64,000 nucleotides of DNA from a virus. The position numbers were made by a program, and so were the translations under genes. This document shows, one piece after another, positions 1 to 20,491 of the stretch. Each line of letters opens with the position of its first letter. The stretch's first letter is position 1. The stretch lies in the IMG/VR virus record IMGVR_UViG_3300034684_000299, positions 1 to 64,000 of that record, one strand, 5' to 3'. The notes beneath the pieces were generated by a model. The model worked only from the letters and a program-made list of their open reading frames with translations, ran no database searches and was not told the DNA's origin.

Positions 1-401
1 TGTGAGTCTAACTTATGCTTAATAGAAGGTGCAAGCCAACCCTCTTTTTTAGAAGATACTCTATTGTTAAACTTAGGTTTTCTATATCTAAGCCTATTGC
101 GTCTAATTCTACGATACATCCTTCTTTCCTTGATAAGTTCAGATATATCGTTTCTTAGTTTAACTTCACCAGAGATTAGCTCCTTCTTTTCAGTTATAGC
201 TGAAAAACCTATATGGTTATACCCACTATCTATACCAAGTGTAATATCTTGTGTATAGGTAGTAGTATCATATAAAAGCTGAATAGTAAAAGGTTTAACT
301 TTAACCACTTTAGCAAGTCCTTGCTTAAGTAGTCTTCTAACTTTACCATGCCTATTAGTAGGCATTAAAGGTTTCCCATTAATAGATAGTACATATACCA
401 T
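1..401 (-). CDS. iscB: IscB RNA-guided endonuclease #1, N-terminal part (runs off window start; not in ORF track)
   Basis: Manual translation from ATG at 401 (SD AAAGGAGG): MVYVLSINGKPLMPTNRHGKVRRLLKQG (PLMP domain), LGIDSG (RuvC-I), RRMYRRIRRNRLRYRKPKF (bridge helix), EGWLAPS. Confidence 0.92.
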   Translation of the reverse strand, partial: MVYVLSINGKPLMPTNRHGKVRRLLKQGLAKVVKVKPFTIQLLYDTTTYTQDITLGIDSGYNHIGFSAITEKKELISGEVKLRNDISELIKERRMYRRIRRNRLRYRKPKFNNRVSSKKEGWLAPSIKHKLDS

Positions 402-666
402 TTAAACAACCTCCTTTAAAGGTAAGTCAGGCTAAAGCCTGTAAGTCCACATCGCCAATGTTACAGTAGGTTTTTCAGTAACAGCACTTCTCCTACCCAT
501 CAGAGATGTTTAACCATTACCCACAGAGCTTGGAACTTGTGGAGCATCCCAAGGTGTCTATATATTCTACTGTAACGTAGCTAAAAAGTAATCCTTTTAG
601 CTTAGGCTAATCAACCGAGCTTGTTTTTCTACAAGCCCCCACCTCTATAGGTGGTGGGTAGTTGAC
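402..666 (-). ncRNA. omegaRNA (HEARO-type) scaffold of IscB #1
   Basis: Starts GTCAACTACCC + hairpin CCCACC..GGTGGG; conserved blocks GTTGATTAGCC, CTACGTTA, GTTAAACA, AACATTGGCGA shared with the other two loci. Confidence 0.85.
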
Positions 667-1883
667 ACTATTACGTTTGTAGGAACACTTCTACTAGAAG
701 TAGGTCCAATTCCTAATTGCCCATAGAAATTATTCCCCCAAGTATACAATTTACCCGTTTCTGTTATTGCTGCTGAATGATGATCTGATATACTTATAGC
801 AACCACTTTTTCTCCACCAAACATATCTATCAAAATAGGATAATGTTTTGGAATAGTGGTTCCATCACCTAATTTTCCTTCGCTATTGCTTCCCCAAGTA
901 TATAACTCACCTGATTCAATTAATGCTGCAGAATGAGCCCATCCTAAACTTACATCTACTACTTTTTTTCCAGAAATTATACAAGTTGGAATATGTCTTT
1001 CATCAGTAGAGCCATTTCCTAATTGTCCATAATAATTGTACCCCCAAGTATACAATTTTCCTGATTCAGTTATCGCGGCGGAATGTTCTACACCCAAACT
1101 TACAGCAATTACTTTTTCCCCATTAAACCTATCTATTAATCTTGGCGTATGTTTCTCAACAGTAGTTCCATCGCCTAATTGTCCAAAGTCATTGTCACCC
1201 CAAGTATACAATTTTCCTGATTCTGTGATTGCCGAAGAATGCCCTGAACCCAAACTTACAGTTACTATTTTTTCTCCATTAAATCTATTTATCCATAAAG
1301 GAAAGCTTCTATCAATAGTAAGCCCATTACCTAATTGACCATAGTCATTTTCACCCCACATATATAATTTACCTGATTCTGTTATTGCCGCTGAAGTATA
1401 ACCTCCCAAACTTATAGCTATTACTTTTTCTCCATTAAAACTATCAATTAATGTTGGCGTAGTTCTATTGTATGTATTTCCATTGCCTAATTGTCCATGT
1501 TGATTGTGCCCCCAAGTATACAATTTGCCCGTTTCTGTTATTGCTGCTGAATGATCTTGCCCTAAATCCACAGCAATTACTTTTTCTCCATCAAAACTAT
1601 TTATTAATGTTGGAACATATTTATCAGCAGTAGTTCCATCACCTAATTGTCCATATTCATTGTCACCCCAGGTATATAAACTCCCAAATTCTGTTATCGC
1701 TGAGGAATAGCCAACTCCCATACTAATTTTTTGAAACTTTATTGTTGGTTCAGGATTAGAAGGCACAAGGAACTCTGTAATAGTACAAAAAGTTCTAACA
1801 TCTCTAGTTCTTTTCCCGTTTTTTAATTTAGCATTTAAATAATATATATCAGACAATTTAATCGACTCCTTTTGTTGTATCAA
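645..1883 (-). CDS. RCC1-repeat beta-propeller protein A (7 repeats), putative tail/receptor-binding; probable start TTG 1856
   Basis: Seven HSxAITExGKLYTWGxNxxGQLG-type repeats of ~52 aa; last residues VSTTHHL* are encoded by the IS left end. Confidence 0.85.
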   Translation of the reverse strand: MIQQKESIKLSDIYYLNAKLKNGKRTRDVRTFCTITEFLVPSNPEPTIKFQKISMGVGYSSAITEFGSLYTWGDNEYGQLGDGTTADKYVPTLINSFDGEKVIAVDLGQDHSAAITETGKLYTWGHNQHGQLGNGNTYNRTTPTLIDSFNGEKVIAISLGGYTSAAITESGKLYMWGENDYGQLGNGLTIDRSFPLWINRFNGEKIVTVSLGSGHSSAITESGKLYTWGDNDFGQLGDGTTVEKHTPRLIDRFNGEKVIAVSLGVEHSAAITESGKLYTWGYNYYGQLGNGSTDERHIPTCIISGKKVVDVSLGWAHSAALIESGELYTWGSNSEGKLGDGTTIPKHYPILIDMFGGEKVVAISISDHHSAAITETGKLYTWGNNFYGQLGIGPTSSRSVPTNVIVSTTHHL

Positions 1884-3633
1884 TAACTTTGAGATAAATA
1901 GGTGGAAACTGAGGTATAAAACCTTTTTTATTACTTTTTAATATTATTTTATGATTAATTTTATTCTCTAAATCTTTCAAAGCTTCAGAAGGAGCGTTAA
2001 TATCTATCAATTGATTCAACTTTTGAAATCTAACGTCAAAAGTAAGTATTTCACCAGTTCGTAATTTGACTTTTAATAGCAATTTTTCAGATTCTATTCT
2101 AGAACATGGAATGAATGGAGCGACAAGATATTTAACCCCGGATCTGGGTTGCATACAGAATCTTAATGTTTCAATTCGTATAAAATTATAATAATACTTT
2201 TCAATTGGATTCTCAATTTTGATCCAATTATAGGCTTTATCAGTTTTTAAAAAGGTTGGTACACGTACATTAATCCAATTATATTTATACGAGAATGTTT
2301 TACGATTAATAGGTTTGTAAAATGAAATTATGAAATTAGTTGGCTTTATACTTAAATTACTGGATGTAACTTTAAGCTCATTTATTATACGTGAATAAAT
2401 GGATAGATTTTCCAAAGTAATCAACAGTTTGTTGAGTTCATGCTTGGTATGATTACTTGATATATTAGAAATTAAAAAGTTATAATTTTTTCTATCAAAA
2501 ATACTTTTGGATGCATTAATAAATAATAATTTTATAAATTCTTTATCAAAAGAAAGTGTTTGCAAATTTCGTAATGTTTCTCTGTGAATTGTAGTATTTA
2601 AATAAATTAAATCTCTTATAATATCAGCATAACCAATAGTATTTTCTAATATTATGTTTTTAAGAATAGAATTATTATAATCAGTATAATTCGTTGATAT
2701 TTTAGATATAGGAATAAAATTTTTAGTAAGTGAACTGAGAGACAAATAATTGAATATCTTACTCTCTTTTGTTTGAGTTGAAGACATTAAGTAATTTATT
2801 GTATTAAAATTAGACAAATAAGATGTATTAGAAATATAGTTTTTAACAATGTTTGTCGAGTTTTGATTATTTAAAATAAGAAAATTAGATACTTTTGGAT
2901 AATATAACTTTGTTTTTGGATAAATAATATGAGATACAGGTGCTTCTTGCATTCTGGTCAAAGTGAAATTCAAATTAGATACTTTTTCTTTCCTTTTAAT
3001 ATTTCTACTTTGAATATCTTTAGAAACTTGTATCCATTTTTCTAATTTTAACGTTGATAAAAACTTAAACCATCCTAAGATAGATTGTAAATCCATCATT
3101 TGCAAAATATCTTCGTCTCTTAACAAACCATAAGCATTTTCAAATAATTCATCGTATTGTTCAGAACTTCCTAAATCATATGAATTTCTGAAGTATTCGA
3201 AAAATATTCTTAATGCAGCTACACTTAAACTTGATATACTGTTCCCTATTTCAAACTCTCTTTCAACAGGTTCTACAATAGTTTCTGTTGGAGGTGGTAC
3301 ATATGGTTCCCCTGGTGTTGATCCTTCTATATATTGTGAAATATCCAATTTATCATAAACCCTAAAAATTTTTATCTCGCTTTGAGAGGACGGAATTATA
3401 TTGATATAATTTAAAAATTCATATGTATTATTCAAAGATAAATTAGAAAGTACATTTGCACCAGCTTCGGACAGATATCCCATTGACATTCGAATCCAAT
3501 TGTAAAATTCCGGATTATTGGGATCCGGAATTATAATATAATCTTTTGTTTTTAAATCAACAAAAGAAACAGCTTTTCTGTTGATTTTACTAATATTAAT
3601 TTGATTATTAATATTAATATAATTATATGGCAT
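1858..3633 (-). CDS. Hypothetical protein (591 aa), N/I/S-rich, in tail operon
   Basis: Long ORF coupled to upstream gene by TAATG overlap at 3631-3635; no recognisable motif. Confidence 0.7.
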   Translation of the reverse strand: MPYNYININNQINISKINRKAVSFVDLKTKDYIIIPDPNNPEFYNWIRMSMGYLSEAGANVLSNLSLNNTYEFLNYINIIPSSQSEIKIFRVYDKLDISQYIEGSTPGEPYVPPPTETIVEPVEREFEIGNSISSLSVAALRIFFEYFRNSYDLGSSEQYDELFENAYGLLRDEDILQMMDLQSILGWFKFLSTLKLEKWIQVSKDIQSRNIKRKEKVSNLNFTLTRMQEAPVSHIIYPKTKLYYPKVSNFLILNNQNSTNIVKNYISNTSYLSNFNTINYLMSSTQTKESKIFNYLSLSSLTKNFIPISKISTNYTDYNNSILKNIILENTIGYADIIRDLIYLNTTIHRETLRNLQTLSFDKEFIKLLFINASKSIFDRKNYNFLISNISSNHTKHELNKLLITLENLSIYSRIINELKVTSSNLSIKPTNFIISFYKPINRKTFSYKYNWINVRVPTFLKTDKAYNWIKIENPIEKYYYNFIRIETLRFCMQPRSGVKYLVAPFIPCSRIESEKLLLKVKLRTGEILTFDVRFQKLNQLIDINAPSEALKDLENKINHKIILKSNKKGFIPQFPPIYLKVIDTTKGVD

Positions 3634-5318
3634 TAGATTATTATTCCTTTAATTATTAGTGAGGATAAATCTTCAGTTGGTACCGCTTGAGACGATAGAT
3701 TCTTTATATTCAACAATGGTGTTTCCCCATTAGCCTCCAATTGTTCTTGAATTAATATCTTGTGTTGTTTATAAAATGGGCAGTTAGCATTACAATTTGT
3801 TGTTTGAAATTCTGGACGTCCTTTTGCACAATAATGCAACAATGTATTATCATCATAAATATTGTATTCACAATGCCCATAGTATTTGTTTTCTAACATT
3901 TCTTCAATTCCTAATATTTTTTGCCCATTTCTTGCTTCCACTATTAGATATAAATCATTATCCTTTGTTATATCTGTATATTTAGCCATAACTTCAACAT
4001 CTATTCTTTTATCAGAAGATACCATAGTTGCATCAGGTGCTCCCATTAAAGCCATAGAATCAGAACCTATAAGGTTTCTAAATTCAAATATTCCTGGATC
4101 AACTGTGGTTACTACTAAAGTATGAAATCCACCTAAACATACTTGTGATGCTTTTTTATATCCGAATCTATCTATTAACGTAGGCACAGTTTTGTTTACA
4201 GTAGTACCATCACCTAATTGACCATAATTGTTTAGTCCCCACATATATAATTTGCCTGATTCCGTTATTGCTGAAGAATGACCATTATATGGGGATACAT
4301 TACCACCTCCTAAATTCACAGTTATTATTTTTTCACCGTTAAATTTATCAATTAAAGTAGGAACACTTTTATTTACAATAGTTCCATCACCTAATTGTCC
4401 GGCATTGTTATATCCCCATGTATATAATTTCCCTGTTTCTGTTATTGCTGATGAATGCAAAAATCCTAAATTAACTACTTTTATTTTTTCTCCATTAAAT
4501 CTATCAATTAAAGTAGGAACACTTTTATTTACAGTAGTTCCATCTCCTAATGCTCCACCATAATCATTTCTACCCCACGTATATAATTTACCGGATTCTG
4601 TTATTGCTGAAGAATGCCATCCACCTAAACTTACAGCAATAACTTTTTCTCCACCAAAATTATCTATTAATATAGGAACATGTTTTTCTACAGTAGTACC
4701 ATCACCTAATTGTCCTTTATCATTCAAACCCCAAGTATATAACTTACCTGATTCTGTTATTGCTGCTGAATGATAGTGCCCTAAACTTACTGATATTACT
4801 TTCTCTCCATTAAATTTATCTATCAAAGTTGGTGTAGTTCGATTGGTAGTAGTTCCGTCTCCTAATCTACCATTGCCATTAAATCCCCAAGTATATAACT
4901 TACCTGATTCTGTTATCATCGCCGAATGATATTCACCCAAACTGACTATTTTTGCCTTATCTTCTTTAAAACTGTATATTAATGTTGGTGTCGTTCTTTG
5001 AGTGGTAGTTCCATCGCCTAATTGCCCATAATTGTTATAACCCCAAGTATATAACTTACCTGTTTTGGTAACAATAGCAGAATGGTAAAAACCAGCTCCT
5101 AAATCTTCTATTTGTTCCCCTTCAAATATTTTTAATTCCACAGGATTACTTTTATTGGCAGTAGTTCCATCTCCCAATTCTCCGTGTACATTGTATCCCC
5201 AGCTATATGTTGTATTAAAAATAATATTTCCTTCAACACTCAAAATTTCTTTTGGCCCAATCAAAAATGCAAAAGGTTCAACAGGGAACGCTTTGTTTTC
5301 AGCTATAATTTTATTCAA
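3633..5318 (-). CDS. RCC1-repeat beta-propeller protein B (7 repeats) with C-terminal Cys/His-rich domain
   Basis: Seven WGxNxxG repeats, then HCEYNIYD..YCA..CNANCPF motif. Confidence 0.85.
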   Translation of the reverse strand: MNKIIAENKAFPVEPFAFLIGPKEILSVEGNIIFNTTYSWGYNVHGELGDGTTANKSNPVELKIFEGEQIEDLGAGFYHSAIVTKTGKLYTWGYNNYGQLGDGTTTQRTTPTLIYSFKEDKAKIVSLGEYHSAMITESGKLYTWGFNGNGRLGDGTTTNRTTPTLIDKFNGEKVISVSLGHYHSAAITESGKLYTWGLNDKGQLGDGTTVEKHVPILIDNFGGEKVIAVSLGGWHSSAITESGKLYTWGRNDYGGALGDGTTVNKSVPTLIDRFNGEKIKVVNLGFLHSSAITETGKLYTWGYNNAGQLGDGTIVNKSVPTLIDKFNGEKIITVNLGGGNVSPYNGHSSAITESGKLYMWGLNNYGQLGDGTTVNKTVPTLIDRFGYKKASQVCLGGFHTLVVTTVDPGIFEFRNLIGSDSMALMGAPDATMVSSDKRIDVEVMAKYTDITKDNDLYLIVEARNGQKILGIEEMLENKYYGHCEYNIYDDNTLLHYCAKGRPEFQTTNCNANCPFYKQHKILIQEQLEANGETPLLNIKNLSSQAVPTEDLSSLIIKGIII

Positions 5319-5355
5319 TCTGAGTGTATTCGTGGTTTTTCACCATCCTTGTAAA

Positions 5356-7266
5356 TTAATCAAAATCCACAATTATTCGTCCACTTAAATTACTCTTAGT
5401 CTGATCTATTCGTTTGATTGTTAATGGAACAGATGTTTGATTTCTATTAGGTAGTTTAACGTATCCTTCCGCTTTGGAATATTCTAACCAAAACTGTTCT
5501 ACGGTAGTTTCATTGTTACCAACGATGATTTTGTCGTTAATCCCTATATTACTGATTGTCTTTAAAAGTACCAGTTTTCCAGGGAAACGCCATTGTTTTA
5601 CTTTCAATTCTCTTGTAGTAGAATCGTATTCCAAAACAATAGGTCTATCGTATCTGTAATATTCTATATAATCCCCTATCTTATAACGATTAACATCGTA
5701 AGGTTGTAAAAGGTTTATTTGAGATACAGCAACCATTTCAGGTGTACTTTCAACAACTTCTTCTAAAATATCTGTATGTGGTTTGATAGTAGCAGGAGCT
5801 AATTCAATATAATAATACGTATTTGTAGAATCATCTAATACTTTGATGGCCTCTTTCTTTCTATCTACATTAAAATCTACTTTTACCATACTTTCCATAT
5901 TTATCACATGGAAATTAACATCGTTGAGATTAAATCGTCCCCAGTCAATTTTGATATTGTTGTTACTATCTTTTTGCACTTTATACATAAAGTTGTTTCT
6001 AATTCGTAAGTTATCACTTAATTCGTCAACAAATAACTTATTTAAATTCATATAATATATCATACTGTAATTTGAAGCTATGATTTTTAATTTAAATTTT
6101 ATATTTGAAGTTATTACTTTTTTTGTAGTTATTTTATGTATTAAACTTCCATCTTCATTATACATATAAAATAGTTGGTACCCGGAATAAATATAAGCAT
6201 CTAAGATAATTGTTTCCGTTGGTAAAGGATCATAAATATATCTATCAAAGATTTTGCTTGTACTACCTGTTGAATCTTTTTCAAAGGTTAAATTTATAGA
6301 ATCAATTAAAGTACCTGTGCTATCCAAAAATTCTAATATATACTTTGAATTAGCGATTCCGGGTGTCAATTTAAATGCTGTTCTAAATCTAAATGGCAGA
6401 GAATACAAATTAGTAGTTTGTATATAATAATTTGAATCTGCAATATTAGAATTGTTAACTACAAGATTGTTCCCATCAGAGATATATAAACCATTAGCAG
6501 AAGTAATATCCCAATTGGTTAAATCTTTAAAATCATCGTTTAAAACTGAGGTTTTTGTAGTGGATAATGTTGACACAACGGTTTGACCATATTGCATTTC
6601 AATTTTATCTTCAGGTACTAAATCCAAAAAATCTATGGAGAATTTTGCTGTTGGTTTTGAAGAGCTTGGAACTAATAAATTAGTATATTCAAAATTATTT
6701 ATTACGGTATTTGGTTCTACATTCAAACCAAGATTATTTTTAACGTTAATTCCTTTAGTTAATACTCTGCCTTCAGGTGTTTGAACTACAACATGGTAAT
6801 TGCCACACGAAATTGAAGAAAATTTGCCTATTTTAGTGAATGTTTTTATACTTTCTTCTTCTATATCAGGCCATAATCGAGCAACAGGATTGTTGTATCC
6901 TGTTCCCCATACATTATCATCTTTATCGTATATAAACAAATTGTATTTATCTAATTGGTATCTAACAATGTGAGCAATAGGGGGAACAATAAACTGTTGT
7001 AATGTTGAAATAGGTAGTTCATCTCCAGTATTTAAGATACCATGTTCATTGTTACCCATAATCCAGATAGTATTACCTGTTTTAAATATTATTATATTTC
7101 CACCATTACATTGAAAATCAGAAACGTTAGTAATGAAAACTGTAGGAGTAGTATCACCATAATTCCATATATATAAAGTTCCATCTTCATTTAAAGAAAC
7201 ATATTTATCTTGAAACTTATCTAATTTAATTATATTAGTAAATTCAGTATAATTAATCAATGGCAT
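5356..7266 (-). CDS. Virion protein with degenerate N-terminal RCC1-like repeats and beta-rich (lectin-like?) domain
   Basis: IWIMGNNEHGILNTG, VWGTGYN, SISCGNYHVVVQTPEGRVLTKG resemble decayed RCC1 blades. Confidence 0.6.
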   Translation of the reverse strand: MPLINYTEFTNIIKLDKFQDKYVSLNEDGTLYIWNYGDTTPTVFITNVSDFQCNGGNIIIFKTGNTIWIMGNNEHGILNTGDELPISTLQQFIVPPIAHIVRYQLDKYNLFIYDKDDNVWGTGYNNPVARLWPDIEEESIKTFTKIGKFSSISCGNYHVVVQTPEGRVLTKGINVKNNLGLNVEPNTVINNFEYTNLLVPSSSKPTAKFSIDFLDLVPEDKIEMQYGQTVVSTLSTTKTSVLNDDFKDLTNWDITSANGLYISDGNNLVVNNSNIADSNYYIQTTNLYSLPFRFRTAFKLTPGIANSKYILEFLDSTGTLIDSINLTFEKDSTGSTSKIFDRYIYDPLPTETIILDAYIYSGYQLFYMYNEDGSLIHKITTKKVITSNIKFKLKIIASNYSMIYYMNLNKLFVDELSDNLRIRNNFMYKVQKDSNNNIKIDWGRFNLNDVNFHVINMESMVKVDFNVDRKKEAIKVLDDSTNTYYYIELAPATIKPHTDILEEVVESTPEMVAVSQINLLQPYDVNRYKIGDYIEYYRYDRPIVLEYDSTTRELKVKQWRFPGKLVLLKTISNIGINDKIIVGNNETTVEQFWLEYSKAEGYVKLPNRNQTSVPLTIKRIDQTKSNLSGRIIVDFD

Positions 7267-7274
7267 AAAAACAC

Positions 7275-8711
7275 CTACTTATATATTGGTGTTAAATCAA
7301 CATGAATTAAGGTTTGAGTCGTTTTTGTAGTAGTCATATTATTAACAGGTAATTGTATTGTTTCATTACCAAAACTTGTAGAAGAAATTAATGTAGGAAC
7401 TGTTTTGTTGGCAGTAGTTCCATCGCCTAATTGACCATTGCCATTCAAACCCCAAGTATATAATTTGCCTGATTCCGTTATTGCTGAGGAATGTCTATCT
7501 CCTAAACTTACAGCTATTACTTTTTCGCCATCGAAATTATCTATTAATATTGGTGTTGCCCTATTTGTAGTAGTTCCATCACCTAATCTACCATCACCAT
7601 TATAACCCCAAGTATATAATTTACCTGTCTCTGTTATTGCTGCTGAATGATAGTATCCTAAACTAACAGCAATTACTTTTTCTCCATTAAATCTATCTAT
7701 TAATGTAGGAACTGTTTTGTTGGCAGTAGTTCCATCGCCTAATTGACCATTGCCATTCAAACCCCACGTATATAATTTGCCTGATTCTGTTACCGCTGAA
7801 GAATGATACCATCCTAAACTAACAGCTATTATTTTTTCTCCATTAAATCTATTTATTAACGTAGGAATTGTTTTGTTGGCAGTAGTCCCATCACCTAGTT
7901 GCCCCGCATCGTTCAAACCCCAAGTATATAGTTTGCCTGATTCTGTTATCGCTGAAGAATGATATCTTCCTAAACTTACAGATATTACTTTTTCGTCATT
8001 AAACTTATCTATCAAAGTTGGTGTAGTTCTAGTAGTAGTAGTTCCATCACCTAATTGCCCAAAATTATTGTATCCCCATGTATATAATTTGCCTGATTCC
8101 GTTATTGCTGAGGAATGTCTATCTCCTAAACTTACAGCTATTACTTTTTCGCCATCGAAATTATCTATTAATATTGGTGTTGCCCTATTTGTAGTAGTTC
8201 CATCACCTAATCTACCATCACCATTATAACCCCAAGTATATAATTTACCTGTCTCTGTTATTGCTGCTGAATGATAGTATCCTAAACTAACAGCTATTAC
8301 TTTTTCGCCATTAAATCTATCTATTAATGTAGGAACTGTTTTGTTGGCAGTAGTTCCATCGCCTAATTCTCCATGAAAATTATATCCCCACGTATATAAT
8401 TTGCCTGATTCTGTTATTGCTGAAGAATGAGAGGAACCTGCTCCTATAGTATAATTCTCACCAAATCTTGACATTAGTACATACGAATCTATTTGATCAT
8501 TAAAAAATTTTATTTTTAAATTGTATGTTCCAGCCACTCTATTTTGTAATCTTACCCTTATTTTCCCTGTTACAGGGTCAAAATCAAAAGGTATAGGATT
8601 GTTTAAATCGTCGTATATTTTAAAATTACATCTTTTTCTTCCTAAACTATCGTATCCCATGACGGCAGGATTGAATGTTGCACCATCAGGAATGAATATC
8701 TCTGTACCCAT
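7275..8711 (-). CDS. RCC1-repeat beta-propeller protein C (7 repeats)
   Basis: Seven highly regular 52-aa repeats; SD AGGAGG. Confidence 0.88.
   Translation of the reverse strand: MGTEIFIPDGATFNPAVMGYDSLGRKRCNFKIYDDLNNPIPFDFDPVTGKIRVRLQNRVAGTYNLKIKFFNDQIDSYVLMSRFGENYTIGAGSSHSSAITESGKLYTWGYNFHGELGDGTTANKTVPTLIDRFNGEKVIAVSLGYYHSAAITETGKLYTWGYNGDGRLGDGTTTNRATPILIDNFDGEKVIAVSLGDRHSSAITESGKLYTWGYNNFGQLGDGTTTTRTTPTLIDKFNDEKVISVSLGRYHSSAITESGKLYTWGLNDAGQLGDGTTANKTIPTLINRFNGEKIIAVSLGWYHSSAVTESGKLYTWGLNGNGQLGDGTTANKTVPTLIDRFNGEKVIAVSLGYYHSAAITETGKLYTWGYNGDGRLGDGTTTNRATPILIDNFDGEKVIAVSLGDRHSSAITESGKLYTWGLNGNGQLGDGTTANKTVPTLISSTSFGNETIQLPVNNMTTTKTTQTLIHVDLTPIYK
7456..8368. repeat. Near-perfect intragenic direct repeat: 7456-7744 = 8080-8368 (289 bp, 2 mismatches, offset 624 = 4x156)
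   Basis: Direct base comparison; 7456-7670 and 8080-8294 are identical. Confidence 0.92.
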
Positions 8712-8724
8712 TATTTTTTTCCTC

Positions 8725-9462: not shown

Positions 9463-9475
9463 ATTTTAACCTACC

Positions 9476-9598
9476 TTATCCTGCTTTGAAAGGTTCTAAT
9501 GTGACATCTACATATACTTCTGTACCTGTTTCAGATTGAATACCAGCTAAATCCAAAATTATTTCATAACCTGCAAAATCAAATTTTGCTACTATCTC
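9476..9598 (-). pseudogene. Out-of-frame 40-codon coding remnant, probably the original C-terminus of the 335-aa gene
   Basis: +1 frame EIVAKFDFAGYEIILDLAGIQSETGTEVYVDVTLEPFKAG*, no canonical start near its 5' end, resembles the GY-motif C-terminus of the next gene. Confidence 0.5.
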
Positions 9599-10586
9599 CT
9601 ATTCCCCAAAGATTATTTTGATTATCAATTACATAAGTCACATCATTATCCACTATTATTCTATTTTTAATAGTATATATATCTGGAGTTGAAACGGATA
9701 ATTCGTTATCACTTTTTTTAAATTTAATATTGTTGAATGTATCAGACATTTCATCTCTTTTAGATATCAATACATCTAATTTAGAATTTTGAGTTGAATA
9801 ATAATTATCGAGGTAAATATCTTCCTCATATACAGGAGCATTGGCTACCGATTCTGAGACTATCTTTATTATAGGAGAAGTAAGATTGTTTATTTTATTT
9901 AATATCAGAAAAAAGTCCTTAGTTAAATCAAGCGACATATTGCTATTAAAAGAACTACTGTTTTCTAAAAAACCAGTATTTGTTAAAGCAGTAGTATCTT
10001 GTAAAACAGTTTTATCTTCAGATAAATTCAATACTTGCGGATCAATAGATTCAGAAGGAGTATAACTATCGTATACATTGAGATACGTACCATATAAAAC
10101 AGCTAATTCGCTTGAAAAACTTGAATTCAAAGAATCAATTAAATAAGTTTTTTCGTTTTTAAAAAATGGACAATTTTCATTACATAGTTCTGTCTTATAA
10201 TATTGAACATTCATAGCACAATACATAGTACCAGTGTTTCCATCATAGATATTGTATATACAATGGGGATAATTTTTGTCATCTTCTACTAATAATCCTT
10301 TAATTATGCCTTCGCCTGTTAGAAATCCATAATTTTCATTTGGTGTTTGTATCCACAATCGCTCATAAAAACTTGAAGGTATTCTAGGATCTTTCAAAGA
10401 AACAACAACGGGAGTATTATCTATTAGTTTTAAAGCTTCTAATCCGACTAAGTTTTTTTCAAAAAAAACCCCAGCGAATTCACCGGGGTCGCTGTTCATC
10501 ATATGAAACTCATCACTAAATTCTTCTATATCTATTTCAACTGTATCCATTGGTACTATGAGTTTATTCAAAGTATTGAAAAACAT
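9579..10586 (-). CDS. Virion protein with Cys/His-rich domain; ends in one truncated RCC1-like blade
   Basis: HCIYNIYD..YCA..CNENCPF shared with protein B; ends VIDNQNNLWGIGDSS. Confidence 0.65.
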   Translation of the reverse strand: MFFNTLNKLIVPMDTVEIDIEEFSDEFHMMNSDPGEFAGVFFEKNLVGLEALKLIDNTPVVVSLKDPRIPSSFYERLWIQTPNENYGFLTGEGIIKGLLVEDDKNYPHCIYNIYDGNTGTMYCAMNVQYYKTELCNENCPFFKNEKTYLIDSLNSSFSSELAVLYGTYLNVYDSYTPSESIDPQVLNLSEDKTVLQDTTALTNTGFLENSSSFNSNMSLDLTKDFFLILNKINNLTSPIIKIVSESVANAPVYEEDIYLDNYYSTQNSKLDVLISKRDEMSDTFNNIKFKKSDNELSVSTPDIYTIKNRIIVDNDVTYVIDNQNNLWGIGDSSKI

Positions 10587-10648
10587 AACAAAATCTGCAG
10601 GTAACTCGCCATTTCAATGGTGAGAGGAATGCAGAACTTCGCCTCCTT

Positions 10649-11941
10649 TTAAGATATTTTGTATCCATAACCGTCATTCCTTTGTAGTAATGTGAGATAT
10701 TTTGGATGTACATTACCGACACCATTTAATAAAAAGCTTGGGCTATGCCGTATTACAATTCTTCCAGTATGGATACCTTTATTTTTCCCTTTTGGTACTT
10801 TTGCTAATACTATATCGCCTGTTTTGTATCCCATATATGTTCGTTCTTTTGGGCGATAACTCTTTGGAAACCCATATTTATCCACAAAACACATTCTACG
10901 CATTCCATGTCCCATTGCTTTAATTTCTAAAACTTTCATATCTGGTTCGAGTTGAACGTTTTGGCCACTTTCTCCAACACAAGCTGCATCTATCCAATGT
11001 TCTTTTGGATACCCTTGTGTTTCACGATTGTATTTTGTCTGTCCTCCAGTTCCTACTTCGATAGGCAATCTTTCTTTCTTTAGTTGGTTAAACAGATACC
11101 AACGTGTTGCGTTGACTGCTGCTGTATCTTTGAGTGGCTTCTTTGATTCTGATTTAATTTGGTTCAGCCTTTCTGGATTATTGGCCAGAAATTCTTCGAT
11201 AGATTGATTACCTTTCTTCTGATTGCATTCGTGGCAAGCTAATGTTAGGTTACTTATTCTGTCACTTCCACCTTTAGATTTTGGTACGATATGTTCTATT
11301 TCTAATGGTATATTCTCTTTACCACAATATACACATTTCCTACCCCATTTCTCAAGGAGATACTCTTTTATTTCGTATCCATACAATGTTCCACGTTGAT
11401 ACTCTATTCCCTTAATTTCTGGATTTTGTAGTTTTTGAGTGTCAAAACGGACTAACTCCATTGAAATACCTGTAATTGGAGAAAAACGTCGAATACGTTT
11501 AATCCATGTGAGTATATTTTCTACACGACTTATAAGACTAGGTGGCAGCCAACCCTCTTTTCTCTTCCTATTCAAGAATCGTGGTTGCCTATATCTTGTC
11601 TTTCTGTTTCTGCGTGAACGTCTTACAGCTCTACGAGTATCTAAATTCTTCTTGATTACATATCCTCGGTGATGAATTACTGATGCCCAAATAACTTTCT
11701 TACCACGTTTAAAATCTGCTACTAAAGCGACTCCAGTATATTTACTGCCAGGATCGATCTTAACCTGTATTGGTTGAGTATCTCCACCTTCACGATCTTT
11801 CAGAATAATTGTGAATGGATGGTATCGAAATACTGCTGCTTTCCCTTTCTTCAATAACTCTCTTGCTCTTGCTGGATGGCAAGGCATTAATTGTTTCTTA
11901 TTCTTATCTAACACAAAAACTCGTTGTGCTGTTTTTCCCAT
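10649..11941 (-). CDS. iscB: IscB RNA-guided endonuclease #2 (RuvC + HNH motifs intact)
   Basis: QLMPCHPARAR, KIDPGS, RRAVRRSRRNRKTRYR, ELVRFD, CVYCG..EIEHIVPKSKGG..NLTLACHECN, HWIDAACVG. Confidence 0.95.
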   Translation of the reverse strand: MGKTAQRVFVLDKNKKQLMPCHPARARELLKKGKAAVFRYHPFTIILKDREGGDTQPIQVKIDPGSKYTGVALVADFKRGKKVIWASVIHHRGYVIKKNLDTRRAVRRSRRNRKTRYRQPRFLNRKRKEGWLPPSLISRVENILTWIKRIRRFSPITGISMELVRFDTQKLQNPEIKGIEYQRGTLYGYEIKEYLLEKWGRKCVYCGKENIPLEIEHIVPKSKGGSDRISNLTLACHECNQKKGNQSIEEFLANNPERLNQIKSESKKPLKDTAAVNATRWYLFNQLKKERLPIEVGTGGQTKYNRETQGYPKEHWIDAACVGESGQNVQLEPDMKVLEIKAMGHGMRRMCFVDKYGFPKSYRPKERTYMGYKTGDIVLAKVPKGKNKGIHTGRIVIRHSPSFLLNGVGNVHPKYLTLLQRNDGYGYKIS

Positions 11942-12187
11942 GGAAGTTACCTTCCTCTCCTTTTCGGGTTAAAGTGAGCCTCGCCAATGTTATTCTAGCT
12001 TTTTACGTTCAACACACTGGTTTCAACCCCGTATACCTGTTTAATGTTGAACGACAGGGCTTGGAACTGGCTCCAGTATTCCAAGGTGTCATGACCAGAA
12101 TAACGTAGCCCGATAGCTTTTCAGCCCTGGCTGAGGCTGGTCAACTCCGAGGCTTCAAGCCTCCGTCTTTAGACGGGGGTTGTTGAC
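11942..12187 (-). ncRNA. omegaRNA scaffold of IscB #2
   Basis: GTCAACAACCC, GTTGACCAGCC, CTACGTTAT, ATTAAACAGG, AACATTGGCGAGG. Confidence 0.85.
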
Positions 12188-15100
12188 TATCTAAACCTTC
12201 CGCCAATGTATTTTAATAAATTTTCTGTAGGTATCTCCGTTAAGATCACCAAATCATCTAACAACAAATATCCTTGTGTATTGTTTCCTAGTTTCAATGA
12301 ATGTGCCACATCAGGAGGTAAACTTATTGTCTCATAACTTAATGTATGAGGATGCAAAAATTGAACGTTATCAGCGTTGATTTTCAACACTATATTCTGG
12401 AAATTGAGTGTATTTAATTTTATAAATTCTTCTTTACTACTCAAAATTAAGTTTCCATCTATGTCTACTTCCAATATCTTTTGCCCATCTATAGTTATCA
12501 AATCTGATATAGCAGATATATCTTTTTCTAACAAATTAGCTGTTGGGAAATCAACGTCATCGTTTGGATCGTCGTATTCTAATATAATAGATAAACCTCT
12601 CATCTGTTGGATAGTGAGTTGATAATTGAAGAACATGAATTCTGATAACAATTCTGTTAAAGTAGACCAAGCAGGAGTAGCTAAATCAAATACATTTCCT
12701 CCATAAGCTATTAATTCAGTACCATTCAATGTCATTGTATTTCCTACATTGTTTAAAAACGCTGCTATAGATGTTTCACCATCTAATACCGTATAAATAT
12801 TGTTCATAGTAGGATCATAATATAAACCTATAGACCTTACTTTATAATGATTATCAAATTCAAATGGATGTGCGTTTTCAGAAAAACTTGCTACACCACT
12901 TAATTCAGTTTGTACATAACATTTAAAACCAGTACTAGTTGAATTGAATTTGATCTTATCGGATAAACTAAACAATGTATATTCTGTAGTATCCGTAGTT
13001 TTATGATAAGTACCTGTATTGGCAAAAATAGTGAATGTGTTTGCAGTTCCTAATTCATTGACAGCAAATTTTACATTGTGTAGATTAGCTCTTATTAATT
13101 CTGTACTCCCTTTGTAAGGGAAAGAAAGTACATTTATACCATCTTTGTAATAATTGTAGGATACTTTAGGATTGACATAGACTTTAGGAGATTTGGTTAA
13201 ATCCAATGTATATGCCGCGTCATATTGTATAGTAAAAAATAATTCAGTATTGGCTGAAGCAAATACAAATGGACTGTTTGGATGGTTCAAATTCACTAAC
13301 CATTTTGCATATTTTTTATCTGGATCGTAAGCTAAAAGAATAACGTCCAATGTATTATCGTCTCTAACAAACTTTATATTGTTTATATCTCTTGTTGCCA
13401 AAACTGTTTGATCCCAGTTCACAGCAGTTATTTCAACAGGTACCCAAAACTCTCCAGTATCACCATGTCTATCTTGAAGAAATCTTAGTTTGTATATTTG
13501 TCTATCTCCACCTAAACCAGTACCAACAAAATCTAATATCATTGTAGAACTTACTGGAACCTCATCAACATTCAAAATATTGTTATCTATTCTTACTCCT
13601 TTTTGATCGTATATAGGAGCTAAAGCTGTGCTTGCTGTAAATAACGAGTTTTCACTGGTTAAAGAATGTTCAAATTTAAATCTATCAGAAGTATCGGTAT
13701 TTAAAAAGGTTATACTGTTTGTTTCGTCGCTGAGATATTTTAATGAATTATACCCTGTATTCAAAACAGCGTTTGGTACATAGATCTTTGTTTCATCAAA
13801 CCATTTTACTACTTTAGCAGATATATTTGTTCCATTTAAACTCATTAGAATGGAACGTTCAGTATCGTTAAATCCTTGCATAGTATGTAAACTATTTATA
13901 TTCAAAAGCATATCAACGGTTGCTGTACTATCGGTTTCATTGTAAATAGACCAACTGATATCGTTATAATTTTTAAACTCTCTGACTATCTTTATGCTAT
14001 CTGTTTGTACACCTTGATTCTCAATTACTTGTCCATCTTTAACAAATACCACTTCATTATACAGTTTTGCTATATTAGGATTCAAAGTTAATTCTTCTAA
14101 TGTATCTATATATCCATTAGTGAGAAAATCTGTTACCATCGAGTATGGTACATGTATTTCTACTATATTGTTAATAACCTCTCTGGTTATCTCAGTAGTA
14201 GAATCAAAATAAATTATTGAGTCATAGAGAATTGTAAAATAGCCATTACTAGTAGAAGAATAATATCTATTTTGTAAATTTACTTGTTTGCTTAATAATC
14301 CATCAGTACGATCATATCTTGCTTTTACCAATGAATTGTTTAGATTTAAATAAAAACTATATACACCCCCCGAACCATAAAACCCTAATGATGTATATAC
14401 AGTTACAAGGCAATTATAAACATTACGCGTTCCCACTAGTCGGGGAGTAGTAAGTCCAGTATGCACAATAACCGTATTAGGGATCAAAGCATACAAATTC
14501 GTCGGTAAAGTATTTAAATCAGGTTGAATATATTTTCCCGGCAACATAATAACATTAGGACCAACAGTATTTGCTTTTGATATAGTCTTGAATGGTTTTT
14601 CGATTGTTCCATCTCCGTAAGTATCATCACCATCAAATCCATCTACATATACAATAGTTCCTTCCCATGTTGACCTTATCTCAGGATCTATATCTAAATT
14701 AGGAATATAAACAGCTTTAGTGTTTTTTGGTGCAAAATAATTTTCTGCATAATAAGGATTGTCTAATTCATCTTTTACATATACTTCATCAGCTGCTCCT
14801 TTATCAATACTTTGTATTTTAATAGGTTCTTGTAAAATAATAGGTTCAGATTCTATAGTATAATTACCTTCATATACGCTATGAGCAAAATATAAATTCA
14901 GTGTATAATCAGTACCTTGTTTATTTTTTCCAACAAAATAAACGGTGTTATTTAAAACATTCAATATATACATATCATCAAATGTAAAATCTGAAGTCAA
15001 TATAGTATTACTATCAATGTCCCCTTTAATAACTGTACTTAATGCTTCTTTTTGCCCATTTTCTATTGCCACAACTTGAACATCAGTCTCTTCAAATAAA

Positions 15101-16284: not shown

Positions 16285-16324
16285 TTAATCGTGGCTTTAT
16301 TTGATACAGCCACTGCACCTCCTT
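16285..16324 (-). promoter_or_regulatory. SD-hairpin-AUG translation initiation site (gene 12187-16284)
   Basis: AAGGAGGT at 16317-16324, stem GTGGCT/AGCCAC 16291-16313, ATG 16284. Confidence 0.6.
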
Positions 16325-16333
16325 CGAAAAGAA

Positions 16334-16561
16334 TCAAAGCAAATTGTCTAGATTTTGAGAAACTTTTTTAAGATCTTCTATTGTAACAGAAAAATCTTTC
16401 AATGCCTCTGTCCCATATTTAGAAATAATATGATTGTAAGCTATTTGTTTATCTTTGGCTGTAGAAGAATCAAAATCACTTATATAGGTTTTAATAGTAT
16501 CATTTAAAATTTTTAATCTGCTTTTGGCATTCATCAAAAAATCAATTTCACTTTCTCTCAT
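16334..16561 (-). CDS. Hypothetical protein (75 aa)
   Basis: ORF with SD AAGGAGGT. Confidence 0.7.
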   Translation of the reverse strand: MRESEIDFLMNAKSRLKILNDTIKTYISDFDSSTAKDKQIAYNHIISKYGTEALKDFSVTIEDLKKVSQNLDNLL

Positions 16562-16573
16562 TTAATTACCTCC

Positions 16574-17548
16574 TTAAATTATTCTAGGTGTATAGGTTTT
16601 CCCTTCTTCTTTTTTATAGATCATCATCGCTGGTTTGGTTGCTGATGAAATTAAATATTCTCCATTCCACAAACCAAATGTCTTTGTATTTCTTATAGGC
16701 GGTATAGCTACAAAAATTTTGTCTAGAGGTGTATCCGAAACTATATAAAAATCGCTGACAACGTCTATAAGTTGGTTTATACCAGGCTCTACTGGAAACA
16801 CACCTTCCTCAGATATAATTTCCATATTAATTGGCCTTTTGTCTACTATAATCCCTACTGTTTGTGAGGCTCTATTGACAGGTCCATAAACGTACGGAGT
16901 ACTTATTGTAGTAGGGAATGGTAATGTTACATTGTTAAGCAATGAAAGTCTGGCTAGATATGGTTCCAATTCCAAAACAGCCCTTTCAAACTTTGTTTTT
17001 GCTGGTGTAATTAATTTTTTGTTTCCTTCAATAACAAACGCCCAAGCAGACCTATCGTTTGGATTGAAATAACCTTCTAAATCATACAATGTTTTATCGG
17101 TATTATTCTTTATACTTATTTGTATAGTATCACCGGTTTCATCGTTGAACATAATTTCATTGATTACTACATCGTCAGGGGTTTCGAATTGAACCATATC
17201 AGGATTAGCAAAAACATGTAAATCTGTTATTGTAATAGTTCCTGTAAGTTGTTTTGAAATTCTGATACCTTGTGATACCATATCTGTTGTTATTTTTAAT
17301 ACATTTCCAGTTTCATATGTAAAAATATTGTTGGTTATTTCCAACCAGTTATTGGGGCCAACATAATTTTCTATTTTTAATTCTTCGTTTTTATCAGTAG
17401 TTAAATCTATAGAAGATATATAATAAGTGCTATCCCAATATACTTCAATAGCATCAGATTGAGACAAAGTAACTGGAAAAGTCAATATGCTTTTTGTATT
17501 AAATATTATCTTATATTTTACATGTTCTAAATTAAGAATATCATACAT
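16574..17548 (-). CDS. Putative virion structural protein (324 aa)
   Basis: SD GGAGG; ISIKNNTDKTLYDL resembles a segment of the neighbouring 211-aa protein. Confidence 0.6.
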   Translation of the reverse strand: MYDILNLEHVKYKIIFNTKSILTFPVTLSQSDAIEVYWDSTYYISSIDLTTDKNEELKIENYVGPNNWLEITNNIFTYETGNVLKITTDMVSQGIRISKQLTGTITITDLHVFANPDMVQFETPDDVVINEIMFNDETGDTIQISIKNNTDKTLYDLEGYFNPNDRSAWAFVIEGNKKLITPAKTKFERAVLELEPYLARLSLLNNVTLPFPTTISTPYVYGPVNRASQTVGIIVDKRPINMEIISEEGVFPVEPGINQLIDVVSDFYIVSDTPLDKIFVAIPPIRNTKTFGLWNGEYLISSATKPAMMIYKKEEGKTYTPRII

Positions 17549-17563
17549 TTTTTATATGCCTCC

Positions 17564-17599
17564 AAATATTGTGTTGCCTTTAGCTTAATGGTAGTTGAC
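17564..17599 (-). mobile_element. 36-bp scar of an IS200/IS605 (IscB-type) element
   Basis: GTCAACTACCattaaGCTAAAG vs element #3 left end GTCAACTACCcaacgGCTAAAG; removal restores TGA-AGGAGG-..ATG. Confidence 0.65.
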
Positions 17600-17600
17600 T

Positions 17601-18236
17601 TCAGTTAGGCATCCCATAAACAACAGCCAACACCATTTCTCCGGGACCTCCGGCAGACAATAAATTAGAATAAGTTATTTCTCTTTTAACCCAAATAGCA
17701 ATTGTATCCCCTGGGTCTAATATTGCTGCTTCTCTTAATGGATTTATAAAAATGGCACTATTATATCCCAAAGGATTTTGCCATTGCCCTGTAATATAAT
17801 TAGTAAGTAATGCAGTATCAGGTGCGGTTTTTTCATTTGGTATGGTAGAGGCAGGATTATTTATTGTATCTCTATCATCCATATTTTTCTGATTTTCCAC
17901 TGCTATTCCCCAAACTTCTGGAGCATTTTCTGATTGTTCTATCCATATACGTATATCATATAAAGATTTAGTAGAGGTATTTTTTAAAAAAACTTTAGCA
18001 TATTGAGTATCCATCGGATTCAAAACAGGGTCTAAATTAATTACTTTAAACAGATTATTTAAACTTTGCCCCGTTGTTGTATCTAATCCCAATGCACCAC
18101 CTACTACTCCATCTTCACGTGGAGTGTATGGTGTATATTGAGCAATAAAAATATCACAAGCTTCATTTGTTTCATAAAAAGATGGTACAGTGCTAGGTAT
18201 TAACGGCATATTATTGATTTCACCTCTCAAAGCCAA
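17601..18236 (-). CDS. Putative virion structural protein (probable start ATG 18209)
   Basis: KVFLKN...DTIAIWVKREIT; SD GAGGTGA before MPL. Confidence 0.6.
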   Translation of the reverse strand: MALRGEINNMPLIPSTVPSFYETNEACDIFIAQYTPYTPREDGVVGGALGLDTTTGQSLNNLFKVINLDPVLNPMDTQYAKVFLKNTSTKSLYDIRIWIEQSENAPEVWGIAVENQKNMDDRDTINNPASTIPNEKTAPDTALLTNYITGQWQNPLGYNSAIFINPLREAAILDPGDTIAIWVKREITYSNLLSAGGPGEMVLAVVYGMPN

Positions 18237-18855
18237 CGAGTTTAAAACCTAATTCAAACTTGTTGTTTAAATAAGTTTCTGCGGGTGTTGTGATTTCACG
18301 TTTAATCCATATAGCTACTTCATCGTTGTATTCCATACCTTCAGATATAACTATTGGGTTGTTTGGATCAATCGGATGCATAAAATTATATTGAGTCAAA
18401 TTATTCTGTAAATATACTAACCCGTCATTATTTTGTGCTAATGCTATATAAATAATATCATAAGGCGATGGTGTTTCTAGGTTTATAAAACATTGCAATC
18501 TATACAATATAAAATTAGGATCTATGAACTTTATCCATAGTTTTTTGTAATCTATTAATTTACCAGTTAAACTTAATTTATATCCTTTAACCGATTTCAA
18601 GAAATTTTCAAACCCATAATGCGATACTACTTTTTCATAATTAATAGTTCCATCGTTTGCAGATATAATATCTCCTGCTGTAACGCTTTGCCCTGCCGAA
18701 ACAGCTAATCCTTCAGATATAGTTACCCAATCATATCCACCATTGTCATATACAATTTGATAACCATCCTCATAGGTGTCTATTCTATCTATAAACCCTG
18801 TAAAAGATGCTTTTACAGGTTCAGTAGCTTGGTAAAATGCTAATTGTTCGGGCAT
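18220..18855 (-). CDS. Putative virion structural protein, paralog of adjacent gene
   Basis: DEVAIWIKREIT vs DTIAIWVKREIT. Confidence 0.6.
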   Translation of the reverse strand: MPEQLAFYQATEPVKASFTGFIDRIDTYEDGYQIVYDNGGYDWVTISEGLAVSAGQSVTAGDIISANDGTINYEKVVSHYGFENFLKSVKGYKLSLTGKLIDYKKLWIKFIDPNFILYRLQCFINLETPSPYDIIYIALAQNNDGLVYLQNNLTQYNFMHPIDPNNPIVISEGMEYNDEVAIWIKREITTPAETYLNNKFELGFKLVGFER

Positions 18856-18929
18856 TAAATTTTCACAAATTCTTACGCAAGGAAGCCACTGGCTTTAGCC
18901 ACGTGGAGGAATTGCGTATTTTAAACACG

Positions 18930-20210
18930 CTACGTAAGAATTGCTACCTCCTTTCTATAACTATACCCATCAAAGCGTTGTACAACTGAAAAATATTTAT
19001 GATTTACACCTTGTACAACTCTTTGACCTTCCTTGTTTTTAATATCAAAATATCCACTGTTTCTACAAGTAACTTCTCCATACCATATGCCTTTATATTT
19101 TCCTTTTGGTATTTCAGCTTTAACCATATCTCCTGTTTGAAAGCCAAAGAAATATTTTTGTCTTGCTAAATATCCTCTCTGAAAGCCGTATTTATCTAAA
19201 TTTGTTCTACAATGACTACCTCTACCTTTTGCTTTTATATACAAAACATCTTTTGTCTTAAAATATAATTTATCTGGTGTACTTTGACCTACACAACAAG
19301 CATCAAAGTAATGTTCTTTTGGCAATCCTAATTTGATTCTATTCATTTTAGTCAAAGCACCTGTACCACATTCTACTTCTAGTCCACTATTACAAAGTAT
19401 ATCATAAACTTTCCATCTTGTAGAATTAACTACAGAAGTATCCTTTAATGTTTGTTTAACTTGTTTTTGTATATCAGGATAACCAAATTCTTCTGCTGTC
19501 ATATTACCTTTCTTCTGGTTGCACTCATGGCAAGCTAAGCAGAGATTATCAATTCTGTTTGTTCCACCCCTTGATTTTGGTATTATATGTTCTACTTCTA
19601 ATGGAATGTTTTCTTTTCCACAATAACAACATTTTCTACCAAACTTTTCAAGTAAATATTCCTTAACTTCATATCCTTGTAAAGTACCTTGTTGATACTC
19701 TATACCACTATTTTCAGGATTTCTCATTAATTGAGTGTCGAATTTAACATTTTCATAAGATATGTGAGTTAATGGAATTAATTTTTGTAACCTATTAACC
19801 CATGTTTTTATATTATTAACTCTACTTTCAAGTGAAGGTGGTATCCAACCCTCTATTTTTCTTCTGTTCAAAAATCTTGGTTTTCTATATCTCGTCTTTC
19901 TATTTCTTCTGTTGTGTCTATACATACGCCTTGCATCAAGTTTCTTTTTAATATCTGTTCTATGGTCTATTTGTCCCAACCATATTACATTATTATTTTG
20001 TAATATGGCTAATCCCGTATGTTTACTACCATAATCAATTTTTAATCTATATTCTTGTTTATTATCAGTGTCATCTACTGCTTTTTTAAGGATTATTGTA
20101 AATGGGTATTTTCTAAATATTGCGGCCTTACCTTGTTTAAGCAATTTTCTTGCAACTGCTTCATGACAAGGTGATAATGGTTTTCTATTAATATCTAATA
20201 CAAATACCAT
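18930..20210 (-). CDS. iscB: IscB RNA-guided endonuclease #3 (RuvC + HNH motifs intact)
   Basis: KPLSPCHEAVAR, KIDYGS, RRMYRHNRRNRKTRYR, YENVKFD, CCYCG..EVEHIIPKSRGG..CLACHECN, HYFDACCVG. Confidence 0.95.
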   Translation of the reverse strand: MVFVLDINRKPLSPCHEAVARKLLKQGKAAIFRKYPFTIILKKAVDDTDNKQEYRLKIDYGSKHTGLAILQNNNVIWLGQIDHRTDIKKKLDARRMYRHNRRNRKTRYRKPRFLNRRKIEGWIPPSLESRVNNIKTWVNRLQKLIPLTHISYENVKFDTQLMRNPENSGIEYQQGTLQGYEVKEYLLEKFGRKCCYCGKENIPLEVEHIIPKSRGGTNRIDNLCLACHECNQKKGNMTAEEFGYPDIQKQVKQTLKDTSVVNSTRWKVYDILCNSGLEVECGTGALTKMNRIKLGLPKEHYFDACCVGQSTPDKLYFKTKDVLYIKAKGRGSHCRTNLDKYGFQRGYLARQKYFFGFQTGDMVKAEIPKGKYKGIWYGEVTCRNSGYFDIKNKEGQRVVQGVNHKYFSVVQRFDGYSYRKEVAILT

Positions 20211-20448
20211 AGAAATTTCTCCTTTCTCTGCTTACGCAGGTAACATCTCCCTCGGCAATGTTATCTATGTTTACACGTATAGCACACTGGCTTAACCCAC
20301 TACACCTGTTTAATGCTATACGACAGAGCCTAGAACTAGGAGGGCATCCTAGGGTGTCATGACATAGATAACGTAGGTTCTGTTTCAAACCTTAGCCTGG
20401 TCAACATAGGGCTATCAAGCCCACGGCTTTAGCCGTTGGGTAGTTGAC
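20211..20448 (-). ncRNA. omegaRNA scaffold of IscB #3
   Basis: GTCAACTACCC, GTTGACCAGGC, CTACGTTAT, ATTAAACAGG, AACATTGCCGAGG. Confidence 0.85.
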
Positions 20449-20455
20449 CTCAATT

Positions 20456-20491
20456 AAAAAAATCAAAAAGTCTCCGCCAAATAGGCGGAGA
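20456..20491 (-). terminator. Intrinsic terminator after the 1677-aa gene
   Basis: Stem TCTCCGCC/GGCGGAGA (20471-20491) followed on minus strand by CTTTTTGATTTTTTT. Confidence 0.75.

Follow-up and report, generated by a model that had tools for sequence, protein, structure and literature searches.

The window analysed here is the first 64 kb (positions 1 to 64,000) of a 185,437-bp IMG/VR virus contig, IMGVR_UViG_3300034684_000299, with a G+C content of ~31%, and it carries three elements in which an omegaRNA scaffold (OMEGA stands for obligate mobile element-guided activity) precedes an iscB nuclease gene. Genes for a fused beta/beta' RNA polymerase, a primase, helicases, DnaB and a large terminase (TerL) identify the contig as that of a phage; these genes, and the recurrence of the loci in independent assemblies, led us to drop a reading as host contamination or artefact. 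A sequence-only reading of the window had described three distinct iscB genes with full omegaRNA scaffolds, two of them complete with intact RuvC and HNH motifs, all co-oriented and all at gene ends or junctions, and our analysis bears out this description. Rfam returned three HEARO (RF02033) scaffolds, all on the minus strand, with scores of 148-161 bits (gathering score, 83 bits) and each covering model positions 1-211. Each scaffold lies directly upstream of a same-strand open reading frame (ORF) with Pfam RRXRR and HNH matches. The other IscB copies of the phage are 55%, 45% and 33% identical to the first, the last value belonging to a copy near 103 kb, outside the window, and on these values we treat the copies as distinct lineages and not as recent duplicates. 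When aligned to the OgeuIscB and TbaIscB structures, both complete proteins, in which an HNH insert interrupts the PLMP/RuvC (RRXRR) part, have the RuvC-I Asp, the RuvC-II Glu, the HNH His/Asn and the RuvC-III His/Asp; for the third, only the N-terminal 133 and C-terminal 76 residues are assembled.

Every scaffold begins with GTCAAC, and the sequence upstream of this motif is unrelated between copies. As independent insertions part exactly at GTCAAC, the 5′ end of the scaffold is the transposon end, and at each IscB-omegaRNA element the adjacent flank encodes the guide, in agreement with the earlier proposal of flank-derived guides. The opposite end is a subterminal imperfect hairpin abutting the transposon-adjacent motif (TAM), which is GTGA for element 1 (12 contexts), ATAAA for the family of element 3 (seven contexts) and ATG... 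for element 2 (two contexts). Each 16-nt guide has one perfect match in the genome, its own flank, which adjoins the transposon end and not a TAM, and a search of the whole genome found no second site with two or fewer mismatches and a TAM for any guide. A promoter scan for the omegaRNA gave nothing above shuffled sequences, so an omegaRNA promoter cannot be claimed. We are fairly confident that the three features are canonical non-autonomous OMEGA transposons of the IS200/IS605 family resident in a phage genome, and as members of that family they would be expected to make RNA-guided, TAM-dependent double-strand cuts in DNA.

Element 1 spans 18867-20448 (1582 bp, minus strand, as are all features given below for the three elements) and sits after the terminator of an upstream gene for a 1677-aa protein. 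The intrinsic-terminator-like hairpin of that gene (20471-20491) is just 5′ of the guide-encoding flank (20449-20464), 16 nt that overlap the T-tail of the terminator. The scaffold follows at 20240-20448 (161 bits), its 5′ end being the right end of the transposon, and then come the complete 426-aa iscB (18930-20210; RRXRR and HNH domains, catalytic residues aligned), the left end (18867-18929), with an outer stem around the imperfect hairpin, and the TAM GTGAA (18862-18866), which reads TTCAC on the TnpA strand. Across five assemblies element 1 is 99.9% identical with zero disabling changes. The terminator hairpin has a homologue at an allele that lacks the element (L109), and strains L112 and L113 have lost the hairpin's 3′ half. 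These two independent assemblies of a 99.9%-identical strain (at L112:4104 and L113:438) are missing exactly 29 nt abutting the scaffold, equivalent to window positions 20449-20477, which removes the 3′ half of the terminator, the T-tail and the present guide and leaves a different guide with no terminator before the omegaRNA. As the guide-side end GTCAA differs from the TAM GTGAA by a single base, occasional self-cutting is one possible cause of this deletion.

Relatives of element 1 in IMG/VR, with 74-93% IscB identity, bring the number of insertion contexts to 12 (11 other viral contigs and this phage), and the flanks of these relatives have no similarity to this phage. In 12/12 contexts the flank parts from the element exactly at GTCAAC, so that related copies differ up to the first base of the scaffold, and the opposite end is conserved up to its boundary, continues into GTGA and then diverges. 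That many unrelated insertion sites adjoin the same motif indicates that element 1 moved by transposition. Elements 2 and 3 each have closest relatives of their own, at 86-88%. Just upstream of one related omegaRNA (L056), an element 1-family left end lies 2 nt from the right end of the next copy, an arrangement that could be either a tandem pair or a captured structure resembling a circle junction.

Element 2 (10587-12187) has its guide-encoding flank at 12188-12203, within the last codons of a gene for a 1365-aa protein, and consists of a scaffold (11969-12187, 148 bits), a complete 430-aa iscB (10649-11941; RRXRR and HNH domains, catalytic residues aligned) and a left end placed by alignment of ends (10587-10648). 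The next gene starts with the ATG of the putative TAM (10582-10586), a motif supported by only two contexts. The element splits the stop codon of the upstream gene, and its own first G rebuilds that stop. Excision in silico yields a TAATG stop/start overlap, where the empty alleles of two relatives (G001 and L117) have TGATG. Downstream of element 2, one extra homopolymer A is found at 9579-9585, near the 3′ end of a 335-aa ORF; another assembly of the same strain (L116:1213-1216) reads through to a product of at least 357 aa, the G001 homologue has 374 aa, and the extra A is either a sequencing error or a real frameshift.

Element 3 starts at 666 and is split by the contig ends. Its guide-encoding flank (667-682) is the 3′ end of an RCC1-repeat gene, into which the element is inserted 2 nt before the stop; the first 22 nt of the scaffold (441-666, 158 bits) give this gene 6 codons and a stop. 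The iscB begins with 133 residues at 3-401 (RRXRR and HNH), and the remainder is at the other end of the contig, where the last 283 nt (contig 185155-185437, minus strand) encode the final 76 IscB residues, followed by the left end and ATAAA. In relatives, the RCC1-repeat gene is directly followed by a homologue of the gene at the far end of this contig, which shows that the contig ends abut with ~675 nt of iscB unassembled; the gene is cut by assembly, not by decay. The element 3 family ends in G followed by ATAAA in all seven contexts. A similarity between the flank of element 3 and that of a mini-element in G001 (about 13/15 nt) was set aside as possible chance.

All three elements are thus at gene ends. 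We think that they probably came to lie there because TAM sequences double as start, stop and ribosome-site sequences, and because disruptive insertions are selected against. The TAMs found here (ATG..., ATAAA and GTGAA) match sequences of start codons, stop codons and ribosome-binding sites, which suggests a reason why insertions at junctions can be harmless in AT-rich phages. Co-orientation of iscB with the upstream gene is a general bias of the family and not a speciality of phages (Meers et al., PMC10055086).

The sequence-only reading had noted that no tnpA accompanies the iscB genes. This holds for the window, which has no Y1_Tnp match, but not for the phage, which has one at 107016-107465, beside a tnpB. 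The protein is intact: an HUH motif and a catalytic Tyr are both present, and its alignment to ISHp608 TnpA has E = 7e-29. In total the phage carries 6 HEARO scaffolds, 4 iscB, 2 tnpB and 1 Y1 tnpA. The right ends of the IscB, TnpB and TnpA-TnpB elements run through a hairpin into GTAGTTGAC (IscB type) or GTAGTTCAC (TnpB type), and their left ends align, with TTYAY- or CAT-type (short T-rich) motifs in one column, such that the ends of the TnpA element have the same architecture as those of the IscB elements. On the evidence of their ends, the IscB, TnpB and TnpA elements are read as one IS605-like family network of the Geobacillus kind described by Meers et al. (PMC10055086). The tnpA-tnpB IS605 at 106893-108760 is 79% identical over 1.9 kb to one in G001 (176.5-181 kb; L122/L123), and both copies are near a homologous gene, in a different arrangement; this phage lineage may have housed the transposase for a long time.

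Other members of the network are reduced or rearranged. Two of the six scaffolds have no iscB. One is a protein-free mini-element at 131324-131690 (L008), in which an omegaRNA scaffold is joined directly to a left end. The G001 mini-element (L014:8137-8530) likewise has a scaffold and a left end, and it keeps the first ~20 iscB codons. The guides of such mini-elements would need IscB supplied in trans. After the other scaffold, at 151 kb (151340-153000, L005), a complete tnpB element with left end, tnpB and right end takes the place of iscB; it is inserted at a TTTAT that overlaps the former iscB start codon; the rest of that iscB is gone. In the fourth iscB (103006-104640, L003) the stop codon of the family is lost and ~20 codons read through the copy's own left end. 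This copy abuts AAAAA, where the motif of its family is ATAAA, and is possibly immobilised; TTCAT was considered as its motif and dropped, as the family ends in G and then ATAAA and the copy abuts AAAAA. Within the window, a 37-nt fragment of a right end and omegaRNA 5′ end stands alone at 17563-17599 (minus strand), directly after the stop of a gene for a 202-aa protein, with a pattern identical to the first bases of an IscB omegaRNA. It is present in this phage, L109 and L129 and absent in L112 and G001, and probably marks where a fourth element has been lost.

A search of related phages for empty alleles had been proposed as a check, and it yielded such alleles at all three sites. In G001, a relative with 66-67% protein identity, all three sites are empty, and its own mini-element occupies a site that is empty here. 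Further empty alleles are found in L110/L111, L117 and L125-L127. The most informative is that of L109, which has the exact junction predicted for element 1, ...AATTGAG|GTGA, downstream of the same terminator hairpin. Compared with the element 1 guide, 12/16 positions of this allele match, 8 of them contiguous beside the correct GTGA TAM.

We then compared three genomes around element 1, using window coordinates: this phage, L112/L113 (occupied) and L109 (empty). Above ~20990, this phage is identical to L109; it is also ~100% identical to L112/L113 at 21000-21199 and has 4 differences from them at 21200-21299. From 20681 to 18241, it is identical to L112/L113 except for the 29-nt deletion and 2 single-nucleotide polymorphisms, whereas L109 is 15-25% different. 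From 18240 to ~17700, it remains near-identical to L112/L113 except for a cluster of 10 differences at 18210-18240, and L109 is again 15-25% different. Below ~17690, the relationship is reversed, with L112/L113 11-23% different and L109 identical. The discordant tract (~20690-17700, ~3 kb) is thus centred on element 1 and 99.9% common to one lineage, and it comprises the element, ~0.24 kb upstream and ~1.1 kb downstream, including the whole of a 211-aa gene and part of the next. The right-hand part of the mosaic recurs in an independent assembly (L129; 99.96% over 6757 nt), and the mosaic 202-aa protein is found on five contigs. The simplest history is that one recombination placed the tract from an L112-like genome into an L109-like genome with an empty site. 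We consider the tract homing-like: it is the pattern that IscB-initiated homing with co-conversion would leave, and a nuclease may have started the event. The earlier suggestion of homing against co-infecting relatives is supported in part, by the empty alleles and the conversion-like tract, but IscB cutting as the start of the event does not follow from them.

The tract also bears on two other explanations. The elements could be inactive passengers, with the mosaic and the presence or absence of elements produced by deletions and ordinary recombination in a region of late genes that is hyper-recombining. Other mosaic blocks do exist between these genomes, the phage contains decayed relatives of the elements (the 37-nt solo end, the protein-free mini-elements and the ORF that runs through its left end), and a terminator stands upstream of the element 1 guide. 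Nevertheless, we find this explanation unlikely: catalytic motifs and full scaffolds are intact, element 1 has stayed free of disabling changes at 99.9% identity across five assemblies, close relatives are intact in many contexts, and, of the identical blocks, the one with the element at its centre is the largest. A different explanation accepts activity but makes TnpA irrelevant, with the elements spreading within the lineage only through IscB cutting of empty alleles in co-infecting relatives and the recombination that follows. A conversion-like tract centred on element 1, an empty allele in a near-identical genome and the lack of tnpA inside the elements all suit this view, and TnpB-driven, TnpA-independent spread among plasmids has been cited (PMC13565253). 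Homing alone, however, leaves the relatives of element 1 in 12 contexts unaccounted for, as each is beside GTGA and requires transposition, and an intact TnpA, in an element whose ends are of matching architecture, is present in the phage. We therefore regard homing without transposition as a doubtful account, and think it likely that transposition and homing both operate.

We propose the following mechanism, drawn in part from the family. Read-through transcription from the upstream late gene would produce an RNA in which the first ~16 nt are the flank-encoded guide and the remainder is the scaffold. A Y1 TnpA would move the elements as single strands to sites beside a short motif, and the phage's own TnpA at 107 kb may act in trans. 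IscB with its omegaRNA would then cut the element-free site, which could be either the donor joint after excision or the empty allele of a co-replicating relative, and recombination with an occupied genome would copy the element back, with flanking DNA dragged along. Target and template would be provided by the numerous copies of the genome in an infected cell or by a relative infecting the same cell. Extending this, we speculate that the phage houses a self-sufficient OMEGA gene-drive network, with its own TnpA, IscB, TnpB and guide-only elements, in which, during co-infection, the cutting of empty alleles by IscB would copy elements into relatives and drive an exchange of neighbouring late genes, possibly receptor-binding ones. 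We put this forward tentatively, as a possibility and not as the expected outcome.

Several observations weigh against the mechanism proposed above. With a T-rich guide that lies just after a terminator, element 1 could be restricted in how much omegaRNA it makes. At 4 positions the L109 empty allele is mismatched to the present guide, and empty alleles of elements 2 and 3 occur only in relatives with 50-67% (site 2) and 73-83% (site 3) protein identity. The hairpin stems of the TnpA element differ from those of elements 1 and 2, and for this reason trans-mobilisation by the phage TnpA is only plausible. Other blocks of 100% identity (24400-23600, and at 21000 versus L112) and divergent patches in the 1677-aa gene occur between the same genomes, and so ordinary recombination could give the tract without a nuclease. 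The left breakpoint comes from this contig alone, where a strain-chimeric assembly is possible. A further alternative is that the IscB ribonucleoproteins have been domesticated and serve the phage, for example in competitor exclusion or late-gene regulation, instead of acting as selfish transposons. The copy number is unusual for a phage and the elements are stably kept across samples, both of which fit domestication, but no guide matches anything other than its own flank, the ends of the transposons and their TAMs are intact, and the phage has no guide arrays and no retargeted guides. We consider domestication very improbable.

The region had been called a tail operon, a label we find plausible. 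PHROG tail matches for the neighbouring genes are weak, and the large proteins have either no PHROG match or a single weak tail match; RCC1 propellers are also present. Ten neighbouring proteins, the large ones included, have zero Pfam matches. In the Atlas, the 1365-aa protein has a sub-threshold Laminin_G_3 lectin lead (0.84, the score given there) and the 1677-aa protein has no match. That the neighbours are receptor-binding genes, as the sequence-only reading had it, is at most a possibility. Megablast of the region against deposited phages gave no match, IMG/VR scans with flanking proteins, used singly or as alignments, returned G001 as the only relative, and two scans of metagenome contigs had no matches. 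At 645-8711 the window contains four paralogous RCC1-repeat propeller genes that are mutually 72-79% identical in blocks, and the last of them encodes 412 aa here compared with 811-834 aa in relatives.

OMEGA nucleases are understood as devices that retain transposons in bacterial chromosomes. For the elements described here, natural sequence data define the ends, guides and TAMs of three IscB lineages and supply a TnpA in the same phage, alleles that lack the elements and a three-genome mosaic resembling a homing product, which reduces the question to concrete assays on defined substrates. In the mechanism set out for the family, TnpA excises and inserts single strands by the TAM, flank-guided IscB cuts the element-free site and recombination restores the element (PMC10055086). 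Homing of the 'non-restorative' kind, by OMEGA transposons into co-infecting phages, is classed as theoretical in a 2026 review (PMC13565253), and the gene-drive network, if true, would be its first natural RNA-guided case between viruses. We found no published phage with its own TnpA-served network or a natural conversion tract, although the literature covered was incomplete and the negative is for that reason not decisive. In themselves the elements are canonical; what makes them notable is their density, the mapped substrates and the homing-like signature.

The closest known system is the ISGst network of Geobacillus stearothermophilus (PMC10055086), in which a preprint by Meers et al. reported TTCAT and TTTAT as IscB/TnpB TAMs and mobilisation of many diverse elements by a single TnpA. 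Both systems have TAMs of the TTCAT/TTTAT type shared with TnpA, mostly non-autonomous copies, one TnpA and co-oriented IscB. They differ in that the replicon here is a 185-kb phage instead of a bacterial chromosome, and the iscB lineages here are mutually 33-55% identical and known from sequence alone. OgeuIscB-omegaRNA (PDB 7UTN/7XHT) and the other solved IscBs share domain order, all catalytic residues and a HEARO-type scaffold with the proteins in this phage, which are shorter (426-430 vs 496 aa) and have modest similarity to OgeuIscB (phmmer E about 1e-25 to 1e-35 over the RuvC-HNH core). The free-standing homing endonucleases of T-even phages (SegF, SegB and MobE), known for intronless homing and localized marker exclusion, provide a functional parallel: in both cases a nuclease gene lies between conserved phage genes, its presence is polymorphic among relatives, and flanking markers appear to travel along. 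In contrast to those enzymes, targeting here would be RNA-guided, a site being a target because it lacks the element and not because a neighbouring gene differs in sequence, and the elements have transposon ends and move to unrelated sites. Among deposited phages, 113 of 50,697 records match iscB or HEARO, 15 of them at full length, and with 116 matching places in those 113 records there is almost always one copy per genome. Silviavirus phages, for which HEARO is listed without analysis (PMC13346280), and Ralstonia, Nodularia and Microcoleus phages resemble this phage in having an IscB-type gene, whether or not a HEARO RNA is annotated beside it. In these deposited genomes the single copy is annotated as an HNH endonuclease or a hypothetical protein, with no analysis of ends, TnpA or alleles, whereas the phage described here combines 6 scaffolds with TnpA and TnpB.

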